NCBI RefSeq assembly: GCF_030384885.1
Contig: NZ_CP128613.1
Length of the DNA stretch: 64,000 nucleotides
From: Escherichia coli
GTDB lineage: Bacteria; Pseudomonadota; Gammaproteobacteria; Enterobacterales; Enterobacteriaceae
Reading direction: 5' to 3' (one strand)
Shown here: positions 9,001 through 12,000 of the stretch, one piece after another
How the letters are laid out: every line of letters starts with the position of its first letter
Position numbering within the stretch: position 1 is the first letter of the stretch
Made by a program: the position numbers

Positions 9001-12000
9001 TTTTTGGCATCGAAACGCGGAAGGTGTCGCTGGAAGAGATTTCTGAGGTGAATTAAATCTTTCGTTGATGGCGTCAATTGCCAGATGTACCACTGACGTG
9101 TTTTATCTGGCCTACAATGGCAGTACAGAATTGTAGGCCAGCATAAAATTACTCCTGCGTCTCTTCCCAGTCTGCCAGCGTATATAGCGTTGCCCCAGCT
9201 GCTGACATCTCCATAAACGCGTGCGCACTGTCCTGTGGCTGGATATTCACGCCACGACAACCATCGGTAATCACATTAACCTTATAACCTAACTGTAACG
9301 CGTCCAGCACGGTAAACTTCACGCAATAGTCAGTAGCCAGGCCCATAATGATCAATTCATCGATTTCATGATCGCGTAACCAGTCATCGAGCGTGGTTTT
9401 CTGCCGACGGCCGTTATCAAAAAAGGCACTGTAACTGTCAACTAAAGGATTTTCGCCTTTATGGAACACCGCTGCGATCGCTTTTTGGTTCAGTAACGGA
9501 TGTAATTGTGCGCCTTCACTGTTCTGCACACAGTGATCTGGCCAGAAGGTTTGTGGCAAACCGTCGAGTTGGCCTGGCGTATAAGGCTCTACACCGTGCT
9601 GACTGGCAAAACTGCCGTGATTCGCCGGGTGCCAGTCTTGACTGGCGATAACCGCTTCACCGCGCGACTGGCACCAGTCAATCAGGCGGTTAGCGACATC
9701 CACCGTACTGTCACCTTCCGGCACGGCGAGCGCGCCACCAGCACAGAAATCATTTTGTAAATCGACCAGTAACAGGGCGCGAGGGGGCATTGCAGTCTCC
9801 TTAATCATCCGGCGTCAGTTCGCCGCGCAGGTTTTGGCTCATGGCCTTGCGAATGGTTTCAGTATCCAGTTCCTGGCTAAGCAGGTAATGCAGTTTGGTT
9901 AGCGTAGCTTCTACTGTCATATCAGCTCCACCAATGACGCCGGCATGGGCGAGGGCGTTACCAGTGGCATAGCCACCCATGTTCACTTTGCCGGACATAC
10001 ATTGTGTCAGGTTGACTACCACAATTCCGCGATCGCTGGCTTCTTGTAATTCTTGCAGGAAGGCTTTGTTTTGTGGCGCATTACCCACGCCATATGAGCG
10101 CAGAATCAATGCTTTCACCGGTTGGCGCAGAAAATTGCGCACGACGTCAGCAGAAATCCCCGGATAAATCGTCACTACGCCAATTGGTTGTGGGGTGATT
10201 GGATGAACGATCAATTCCCCTTCACCGTGCGGGGCGGGGGGCGTATTCAAACGACGAATATGGATACCTGCTTCCAGTAACGGAGGAAGGTTTGGAGAGG
10301 CAAACGCATCAAAACCATCGGCATGGGCTTTGGTGGTACGGTTGCCACGATAAAGTCGATTATTAAAAAAGAGAGTTACTTCGTTGATAGGATAATTCGC
10401 CGCAACGTACAACGCATTCAGCAGATTAATTTGTCCGTCAGAGCGTAACTCAGCCAGCGGGATTTGTGACCCTGTCACAATGACCGGTTTACCGAGATTC
10501 TCGAGCATGAACGACAGCGCAGAGGCGGTATACGCCATCGTGTCGGTGCCGTGCAGAATGACAAAACCATCATAGTCGTCATAATGCGCTTTAATATCTT
10601 CAGCAATATGCTGCCAGTCTTCTGGCGTCATATCTGAAGAGTCCATCAGCGGCGTATATTCATGAATGGTGAAATCTGGCATCTCCGGGCGATGGAATTC
10701 CGGCATCAGCGCCAGTTGGCGTTGTAGATGACCTGACACCGGAATATAACCCTGCTCGGAACGCTGCATCCCGATGGTCCCGCCCGTGTAGGCGACGTAA
10801 ATTGATTTCTTTTGCATGATATTGATATGAATGATATCGAAAGAGCAAAAGTATATACGTGAGGGGCAGCGAGCGCACCTGGATACTCTGTGGATATGAG
10901 AAAAGTCCGGCAGAACGGAGGGATTAGTGTCCAGCCGGAGAAAAGTGGTTAATCCTGCAACGCATAGGTTACGGTGGTGACTACGCGTACCGTTTTATTA
11001 ATCGCCGTAGGATCATCTTCATCACTGCCACTGGCGAAGATCTGGAACACGCCTTGTGAGGCATCGCTAATTGACCCCACCTGGCTACCTGAGTCCGTTG
11101 CAAATTGTAATGCTGCGTTGCGTGCATCTTTGGTGGCGGCGGCAATCATCTCAGCGCGCAGTGCGCCAATACCATTAAAGCGATAGGCGACTTTGCTCTC
11201 AGCGATAGCGCCCTCCGTAGCGACTTGCAGTTCGTTTAATTTCGCGACGACTTTTTCGACAGCAGCAACATTATGGGTTTTTATCGTCACTGACCCGTCT
11301 GCGTTATAGCGTGGCATTGTGGGATCATCTTTCAGATAAAAGGAATCTGTTCGCTTGCTTGTCCATTGGCCCTGGGTTATCTCTTTCTCGTTAATCCCCT
11401 GAGCATTGAGTTCGGCAACAATTTTTTTCTGCGCGTCTTCCAGTTTCGGGAACAGTTCGCCGGGAATATTACCCTTAAAGTTAATCGCAATTGTTAATTC
11501 TGCCGTATCTGCGCGAACTTCTTTTTCAGAAAGCCCACGCACATTTACATAACGGTTATTGGTTTTTAAATGTTTAACACCATCGCCAACAAAATAACCA
11601 CAGGCGCTAATCCCCAGTCCGAGGACGATAGCGGCAATTAAAGAGGGGGCCTTATTCACTGATGACTCCATATCAGATGCTAAATGAGCAAGGGAATGTA
11701 GTGGAGAGAGGGAGTGAAAGACAGTCCGATTCAGGAGTGTGGCCGACAGCATATCGGCCACATTTTTGCAGGATTTAACGCACGTTGGCGCAGGTCAGGC
11801 AAAACGCATAACGGTTTTGTGGGTCGTTAAACGCTGCCAGCTTGTCGCTTTCACTTTTAACGGTAGAGGCTACCGAGGCCAGCGGTGCAGGTAACATGGC
11901 CTGGAACGCATCTGGCAACATTGCCCGGACAGAACCAGACATATTGTCCATCACTTTGTCGAAGAAGGTCGGTTCATCAACGTAGTATTCCAGATGCCAC

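Follow-up and report, generated by a model that had tools for sequence, protein, structure and literature searches.

The DNA studied here is a 64,000-nt stretch of the Escherichia coli contig NZ_CP128613.1, hereafter the window, to which all coordinates refer. The gene in question lies on its minus strand between the core genes sppA and ansA and codes for a protein with a SIMPL domain. We consider it probable that this is an old and functional gene, orthologous to ECs_2473 of O157:H7 strain Sakai and encoding a presumably membrane-tethered protein, which was deleted in most E. coli, kept in cryptic clade I and the O157 group, and re-imported by sequence type 131 (ST131). Its place between sppA and ansA would predate the divergence of the Escherichia species, and the gene would persist in cryptic clade I as well as among O157:H7, O55:H7 and O145 strains, a group that we take to be phylogroup E. 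The case for function rests on ratios of nonsynonymous to synonymous divergence (dN/dS) of 0.05-0.13, on intact orthologues and on the published induction of ECs2473.

The gene order sppA-SIMPL-ansA is shared by other Escherichia species, including E. albertii, E. fergusonii, Escherichia sp. MOD1-EC7003 and Escherichia sp. E1V33, whose SIMPL proteins are 85-86%, 70%, 95% and 94% identical in amino acid sequence to that of the window. The same order was found on more distant enterobacterial contigs, namely L007 (SIMPL protein 67% identical, SppA 90%), L100/L101 (66%) and L102 (58%); on the L100/L101 and L102 contigs the C-terminus of SppA is 76-83% and the N-terminus of AnsA about 95% identical to the window. 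The synonymous divergence (dS) of the SIMPL gene from the window copy runs parallel to that of its flanks. It equals 0.29 for MOD1-EC7003 (sppA 0.30, ansA 0.23), 0.55 for E1V33 (0.43 and 0.38), 1.2 for E. albertii (0.73 and 0.72) and 1.7 for E. fergusonii (1.6 and 2.4). The dN/dS values given above hold for every species pair, and the open reading frame (ORF) is intact in all orthologues examined. The gene has therefore been co-inherited with its flanks under purifying selection, at a dN that is two to six times that of sppA and ansA.

No integrase, insertion sequence (IS), tRNA or direct-repeat boundary was found at the limits of the gene. Searches with PADLOC and PHROG returned no family match for it, and the best copies in a plasmid search were at most 36% identical. 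By these comparisons the gene appears to be an old resident of the sppA-ansA locus, probably gained once, long ago. The sequence-only reading had proposed that the gene is ancestral and has disappeared from K-12, and that it was not imported recently; cross-species synteny, the parallel dS values and purifying selection now support this view.

Outside the syntenic enterobacterial group, the nearest relatives among the matches listed are metagenome sequences of 50-58% identity in unrelated contexts; the neighbours of the 54-58% homologues, for instance, are a Mur ligase and DHDPS/DapB. SppA or AnsA was encoded nearby in none of 89 loci of distant homologues outside that group. A functional link between SppA and the SIMPL protein was considered and rejected on this ground, and their adjacency is historical rather than functional.

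The distribution within E. coli is uneven. In MG1655 (K-12) the gap between sppA and ansA is 166 bp with no gene inside, in agreement with the figure of less than 200 bp in the sequence-only reading, and HS30-1, CFT073 and UTI89 likewise have a 166-bp gap without the gene. We found the SIMPL gene in 943 of 5,426 complete E. coli genomes (17%), always as a single chromosomal copy; in the other 4,482 matching genomes only the flanks match the window. Among 60 sampled carriers all copies are annotated as a coding sequence (CDS), and in 59 the match spans exactly 711 nt. The copy of strain CV261 (NZ_CP040316.1 3160690-3161401) gives a match of 712 nt, a 1-nt indel, and is possibly frameshifted.

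Two allele classes were distinguished, their distribution by lineage being given by named strains and a few reference genomes. Class a, about 97.6% identical to the window, was found in 358 genomes that include O157:H7 strains, O55:H7 CB9615 and an O145 strain. Class b, at least 99% identical, was found in 585 genomes. Flanks of the clade I type, with 99% identity or more across 3.8 kb, occur in only eighteen of them, including the clade I genome EC42405, while the remaining ~567 have flanks of the phylogroup B2 type (97.9% identity) and include an O25b:H4-ST131 genome and strain SE15.

The gene itself is not new, since annotations of it exist and earlier work has reported that MG1655 lacks it. 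ECs_2473 of O157:H7 Sakai is the same gene at the same locus, with 97.6% nucleotide identity to the window copy and the annotation 'putative lipoprotein', and WP_001030441.1 and WP_001030438.1 are the RefSeq 'SIMPL domain-containing protein' entries for ECs_2473-type genes of other strains. ECs2473 was reported to be absent from MG1655, with E. albertii as the top match outside E. coli (PMC4940412). In the Sakai genome (L104 17061-19629), ydjE, two genes away from the SIMPL gene, is a pseudogene, and an IS629/IS1203 element lies about 100 bp past its annotated end.

Strain 2013C-4282 matches the window with 100% identity across 3.8 kb, the next best genomes reaching 99.6%. This strain is listed as a completely sequenced genome of Escherichia cryptic clade I that carries stx1 (PMC10100065). 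Its clade I origin accounts for the 2-5% divergence of the whole region from K-12, CFT073 and ST131. The window copy of the gene is the clade I allele, and its product differs from the common clade I/ST131 protein by one amino acid. The SIMPL gene is found in each of the 18 clade-I-type genomes, with private single-nucleotide polymorphisms (SNPs) inside it.

Against this background, the ST131 copy stands apart from its own surroundings. Over 31 kb the window and ST131 diverge by 2-5%, but by only 0.2-0.6% in the bins of 11001-12000. A site-by-site SNP table shows CFT073 alleles in ST131 and in strain L1PEag1 up to 10722 and again from 11774; from 10865 to 11771 both match the clade I consensus at every site. 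Over the 1,051 bp between these limits ST131 differs from the window at two positions (10933 and 11373), both private to the window strain, where about 28 differences would be expected at the flank rate of ~2.7% (Poisson probability of two or fewer about 3e-10). Within this tract the O55:H7 allele has 20 differing sites. One and the same protein, WP_001030438.1, is encoded by ST131, EC42405 and N96, and the site is empty in CFT073 and UTI89, which represent two other B2 lineages. A clade-I-like donor would have supplied a segment of 0.9-1.05 kb that restored the SIMPL gene in the ST131 lineage of phylogroup B2 by homologous recombination; judged from these alignments, a clade I to ST131 transfer by such a patch is probable and well supported. 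It is improbable, in our estimate, that the regained protein aids the ecological success of ST131 in comparison with ST73 (CFT073) and ST95 (UTI89), and any adaptive significance of the regained gene is pure conjecture.

The loss of the gene elsewhere can be modelled as a deletion. K-12, CFT073 and HS30-1 have a common 166-bp spacer with few differences, and UTI89 has the same gap length by annotation. Positions 32-166 of the K-12 spacer align with the whole 131-nt spacer that lies 3' of the SIMPL stop codon in the window, and this alignment begins at CCAC, the tetranucleotide that also closes a hairpin just downstream of sppA. A deletion of 794 bp between two such 4-nt CCAC repeats would have produced the empty allele shared by most E. 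coli sensu stricto. It predicts a spacer of 957 - 794 = 163 bp, to be compared with the 166 bp observed in K-12, CFT073 and UTI89. The same event would have placed a U-rich stretch behind the sppA hairpin: on the sppA strand the hairpin is followed by AUUAUUUUUU, a U-run, in the empty allele of K-12, whereas ACUCCUG stands there in the occupied E. coli, clade and E. albertii alleles.

The product is a full-length member of its family, as the sequence-only reading had anticipated. The Pfam SIMPL (DUF541) profile PF04402 matches residues 42-236 of the 240-aa version along model positions 1-205 of 205 (E 6e-18, 66 bits), and PF04402 was found in 120 of 120 homologues listed. An AlphaFold2 (AF2) model built with 27 diverse homologues has a confident alpha/beta body (mean predicted local distance difference test score, pLDDT, 85.8). 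Its two best Foldseek matches were solved SIMPL proteins, namely PDB entry 7C50, with E 3e-16 and a template modelling score (TM) of 0.78 relative to the target, and BP26 of Brucella (4HVZ, E 5e-11); the next matches had TM below 0.3. The model thus predicts the two-lobed alpha/beta SIMPL fold.

A phmmer search of the PDB retrieved 10am (9e-28) and 7C50 (3.6e-26), while the profile E value for BP26 was only 2e-5. Entry 10am is a full-length Campylobacter jejuni homologue of 231 aa with a hydrophobic N-terminus, deposited as 'Periplasmic protein' in nine chains, which hints at an oligomer or a larger complex. By its kinship to 7C50 and 10am and its glycine-rich N-terminal helix, the protein belongs to the cjSLP-like, membrane-helix subfamily of SIMPL proteins. 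The C. jejuni SIMPL-like protein (7C50/7C51, 10am) aligns with it almost from end to end (E ~1e-26 to 1e-27 in phmmer), with about 30% identity over a structure-based alignment. The two share a hydrophobic N-terminal segment followed by a DR-V-VKGL strand and the C-terminal motif MI..AT..AR..A..FA.DS. However, the C. jejuni protein has no cysteine in its N-terminal segment and its genomic context is unrelated. A guess that it is Cj0561c was dropped, as the search gave no support and one match, from the OMPdb database of beta-barrel outer membrane proteins, points to another kind of protein.

How the protein is attached to the membrane depends on its N-terminal segment. The AF2 model has a helix there (residues 4-30), though one of low confidence. 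G16, G21, G25 and G27, spread along the 20-residue hydrophobic stretch, are nearly invariant in 27 diverse subfamily members, whereas Cys20 is confined to Escherichia-like sequences. These comparisons indicate that the family feature is one continuous, glycine-rich hydrophobic helix, which looks uncleaved in the wider subfamily. BP26 and YggE are periplasmic proteins. Since SIMPL proteins are known from the periplasm and 10am is named a periplasmic protein, the segment (residues ~4-27) would export the SIMPL domain and tether the protein on the periplasmic side of the membrane. In Escherichia it would have acquired a lipobox-like ISAC, so that lipid anchoring at Cys20 is possible, if unproven.

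The main alternative, to which we give somewhat less than an even chance, is that the protein is a true lipoprotein, cut by signal peptidase II before Cys20, lipidated, and sorted by the Lol pathway, with Gly at position +2, to the inner face of the outer membrane. The sequence-only reading had likewise seen a lipoprotein signal peptide, ending in LGLGISAC. The lipobox is indeed present in MNKAPSLIAAIVLGLGISAC, in which residues 17-20 (I-S-A-C) fit the usual pattern [LVI][ASTVI][GAS]C behind an n-region lysine (Lys3) and an 11-residue h-region. The cysteine is kept in E. coli, E. albertii, E. fergusonii and contig L007 (the N-termini of E1V33 and MOD1-EC7003 were read only to VNKAPSLI), and the Sakai annotation is of the same opinion. 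However, Cys20 is not invariant among orthologues: the syntenic proteins P0010 and P0015 from L100 and L102 lack it, as do all more distant members including the C. jejuni protein, and E. fergusonii has a non-canonical ITVC with Val at position -1. The residues GYFVGDG after Cys20 prolong the hydrophobic stretch, and their three nearly invariant glycines point to a continuous membrane helix. The Prokaryotic Genome Annotation Pipeline (PGAP) makes no lipoprotein call. The lipobox is thus no conserved family feature and the lipoprotein label is doubtful.

Several points weigh against the overall account. The age of the gene relative to Escherichia is bounded only by contigs L007, L100/L101 and L102. 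In an SppA protein search for a Salmonella or Citrobacter outgroup, all of the 120 matches listed were E. coli or Shigella variants, and the contig scan for the SIMPL gene, with at least 600 stretches, says nothing on absence from other genera. The direction of transfer between clade I and ST131 is drawn from parsimony, and the name ST131 is attached to no more than a few of the ~567 B2-type carriers. The charges around the hydrophobic segment are not decisive for its orientation. Simple scans found no consensus sigma-70 promoter or terminator around the gene. Finally, in the stretches of some 35 nt and 85 nt that border the indel, empty and occupied alleles are about 30% divergent, compared with 2-4% in the surrounding DNA, and a simple recent deletion leaves this divergence unexplained.

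The last point concerns positions 10865-10931 and 11734-11771, where the empty alleles of K-12 and CFT073 are about 30% apart from the occupied ones, although the latter hardly differ among themselves in E. coli and clade I. E. fergusonii resembles the empty allele in having a U-run behind the sppA hairpin. Given this divergence and the shared U-run, the empty allele may have arisen by introgression or may far exceed E. coli sensu stricto in age. An alternative of lower but appreciable probability holds that the 166-bp spacer is an older or foreign allele, which a short recombination patch brought into E. coli and which later spread there. The DNA beside the indel lies about equally far from the occupied alleles of E. 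coli and of E. albertii, the U-run is missing from the occupied E. coli, clade and E. albertii alleles, and ST131 provides a case of patches of this size moving at the locus. On the other hand, the spacer aligns from end to end with the hairpin and the 3' spacer joined at CCAC, as a deletion predicts; the U-run is possibly derived from TTTTCTCC, which follows the SIMPL stop codon; and no donor lineage is known. We retain the deletion between CCAC repeats as the preferred origin of the empty allele.

With respect to function, the SIMPL domain has no recognisable catalytic motif, and the literature search returned no biochemical function for this subfamily and nothing usable on PDB 7C50 or 10am. 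BP26 is a soluble periplasmic protein whose signal peptide is cleaved off, and it forms rings. These rings and the nine chains of 10am are the ground on which an oligomeric envelope role is suggested; our analysis points weakly to an envelope protein of the periplasm that has no enzymatic activity, is probably oligomeric and can be dispensed with by most E. coli. Among other SIMPL proteins, one from Paenibacillus has been reported to be bacteriocin-like, and BP26 is described as immunogenic and adhesin-like.

It is rather unlikely that the gene is a functional duplicate of yggE, encoding a periplasmic 'oxidative stress defence' SIMPL protein with the same job. YggE, annotated as 'oxidative stress defense protein', belongs to the same Pfam family and occurs in the same genomes, and the window protein gives a weak match to the NCBIfam YggE equivalog NF008299 (E 2.6e-4). 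YggE-type SIMPL proteins are linked to oxidative stress tolerance in PMC12489995, which cites work on E. coli yggE. However, the match reaches 20.4 bits against a curated cut-off of 249. The protein falls into a different, membrane-helix subfamily, to which the C. jejuni protein (1e-27) is far closer than any of the BP26/YggE type, and in the single expression result for the gene the inducer is a plant cell-wall polysaccharide and not an oxidant. YggE is thus a distant paralogue rather than an orthologue, core in E. coli, in contrast to the SIMPL gene with its presence in 17% of complete genomes. BP26/Omp28 (4HVZ), an extracytoplasmic protein, shares the SIMPL fold with only 16% identity and belongs to another SIMPL subfamily. 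The description of the protein as paralog-like to YggE and BP26 in the sequence-only reading was accordingly overstated, as BP26 is a distant structural relative and the close one is the C. jejuni protein.

Even less probable is a decaying, functionless remnant that is heading for loss everywhere. The gene is gone from most E. coli at no obvious cost, its dN exceeds that of its neighbours two- to sixfold, the CV261 copy differs in length by 1 nt, and an IS200/IS605 element stands in the upstream spacer of nine clade-I-type genomes. In contrast, dN/dS stays at 0.05-0.13 across divergences up to a dS of ~1.7, the ORF is intact in all orthologues examined and of exact length in all but one of the sampled carriers, which are all annotated as CDS, and the transcript is regulated in O157 Sakai. 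A recent horizontal import, as a small strain- or pathotype-specific genomic islet, is the least credible of all: the gene is missing in 83% of complete E. coli genomes, its GC content at third codon positions (GC3) is a little below that of its neighbours and its nearest relatives listed beyond the syntenic group come from environmental metagenomes, but synteny already contradicts such an origin, with position and orientation unchanged in four or more other Escherichia species and on three contigs of more distant enterobacteria, as do a dS equal to that of the flanking core genes and the lack of mobile-element boundaries, of phage or defence family matches and of a close plasmid copy.

The transcription of the gene may depend on sppA. 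The hairpin just downstream of sppA has a predicted RNA folding energy of -21.1 kcal/mol (z -3.4). In the occupied allele it is not followed by a U-run, so read-through from sppA into the SIMPL gene is possible. The terminator-like hairpin downstream of the SIMPL stop codon is not significant against shuffled sequences (z -1.2) and received no call in the simple terminator scan; a search of both spacers against Rfam found nothing. ECs2473 was induced 11.65-fold by lettuce cell-wall polysaccharide in a microarray study (PMC4940412). The IS200/IS605 element (tnpA) of the nine genomes with clade-I-type flanks is 711 bp long and is inserted in the 115-nt sppA-SIMPL spacer beside the sppA hairpin, as exemplified by strain E200086 (L098 2611-3069). 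This insertion may cut the SIMPL gene off from upstream transcription.

At the level of the gene model, 957 bp separate the ansA start (10817) from the sppA stop codon (11775-11777), and ORF calling finds in this spacer a single intact minus-strand ORF that terminates at 10949. RefSeq annotates the identical sequence of strain 2013C-4282 as a 236-aa 'SIMPL domain-containing protein' with GTG at 11659 (WP_123058306.1). The extra intact gene that the sequence-only reading had placed in this gap is thereby confirmed, as is its view of a single gene rather than a system. It had read the ORF as 10949..11671 (about 240 aa), of which the 3' end stands and the start is 12 nt too far upstream. In a cross-species alignment the position of the ATG at 11671 is occupied by AAGGAG or AAGGAA in E. 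albertii, E. fergusonii and E1V33, and the homologous start on contig L007 is an ATG aligned with the window GTG. Because the upstream ATG is thus a Shine-Dalgarno box in the relatives and the L007 start aligns with the GTG, translation most likely begins at GTG 11659, giving 236 aa, and not at ATG 11671. The GC content was held to be host-like, which is correct, although the 47.8% of the gene (GC3 46%) is slightly lower than the 51-52% of ansA and sppA (GC3 52-55%). The ~47 promoter-proximal nt of ansA do not differ between occupied and empty alleles. Coordinates of all features are collected in the table.

Table. Features of the sppA-ansA locus in the window (strand left empty where none applies)
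Feature	Position	Strand	Details
SIMPL-domain protein gene	10949..11659	-	236 aa, GTG start; ORF, RefSeq CDS coordinates, Pfam SIMPL
Putative N-terminal hydrophobic export/anchor segment SLIAAIVLGLGISACGYFVGDG	11579..11650	-	residues 4-27; ISAC codons 11600-11611
Spacer between sppA and SIMPL gene	11660..11774	-	115 nt; Shine-Dalgarno box ATGGAG 11666-11671, 6 nt ahead of GTG
Minimal clade-I-identical tract in ST131-type B2	10865..11771		maximal 10723-11773; whole SIMPL gene and both spacers
Inferred deleted segment	10949-11742 or equivalently 10945-11738		794 bp between two CCAC repeats
Microhomology arm 1, GTGG (CCAC on gene strand)	10945..10948		directly after SIMPL stop codon
Microhomology arm 2, GTGG (CCAC on gene strand)	11739..11742		end of sppA hairpin
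Hairpin just downstream of sppA, GTGGCCGA..TCGGCCAC	11739..11761		perfect 9 bp, G+C-rich; 11-pair stem in predicted fold
Weak terminator-like hairpin CCGGCUGGAC..GUUCUGCCGG + ACUUUUCUC	10897..10939	-	downstream of SIMPL stop codon
ansA (asparaginase 1), downstream neighbour	9801..10817	-	ORF, RefSeq
sppA (signal peptide peptidase), upstream neighbour	11775..13631	-	ORF, RefSeq

Other parts of the window also vary between lineages. At 22001-24500 (ynjC/ynjB) the divergence from ST131 and CFT073 rises to 7-11.6% in several 500-bp bins, compared with 2-5% elsewhere; the bin 22501-23000 of this region has 2.6%. By its divergence, this block may be a further haplotype of the clade I strain that is old or was introgressed. 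The spacer 17464-17546 between topB (15451-17463) and gdhA (17547-18890) is a second presence/absence site. It holds no gene in the window, ST131 and UTI89, ynjI in K-12 and O157 Sakai, and three genes in CFT073, which encode a J-domain protein, an Hsp70-family protein and a hypothetical protein. The divergence at 17001-17500 is about 11% from all compared strains.

To the known gene the present analysis adds a corrected start codon, doubt about the lipoprotein assignment, a proposed deletion mechanism and the likely recombination patch from clade I to ST131. The locus offers an example of a core-like gene that turned accessory, with one old deletion allele now dominant and the intact allele held by clade I and the O157 group. 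It also suggests that a clone of clinical dominance can recover a lost gene when E. coli sensu stricto recombines with clade I on the kilobase scale. As a practical matter, the gene may serve as a presence/absence marker that separates ST131-type B2 strains, O157:H7/O55:H7/O145 and clade I from K-12-like strains, ST73 and ST95, and the carriers and non-carriers together would form a natural knockout series for studying the cjSLP-like subfamily of SIMPL proteins.

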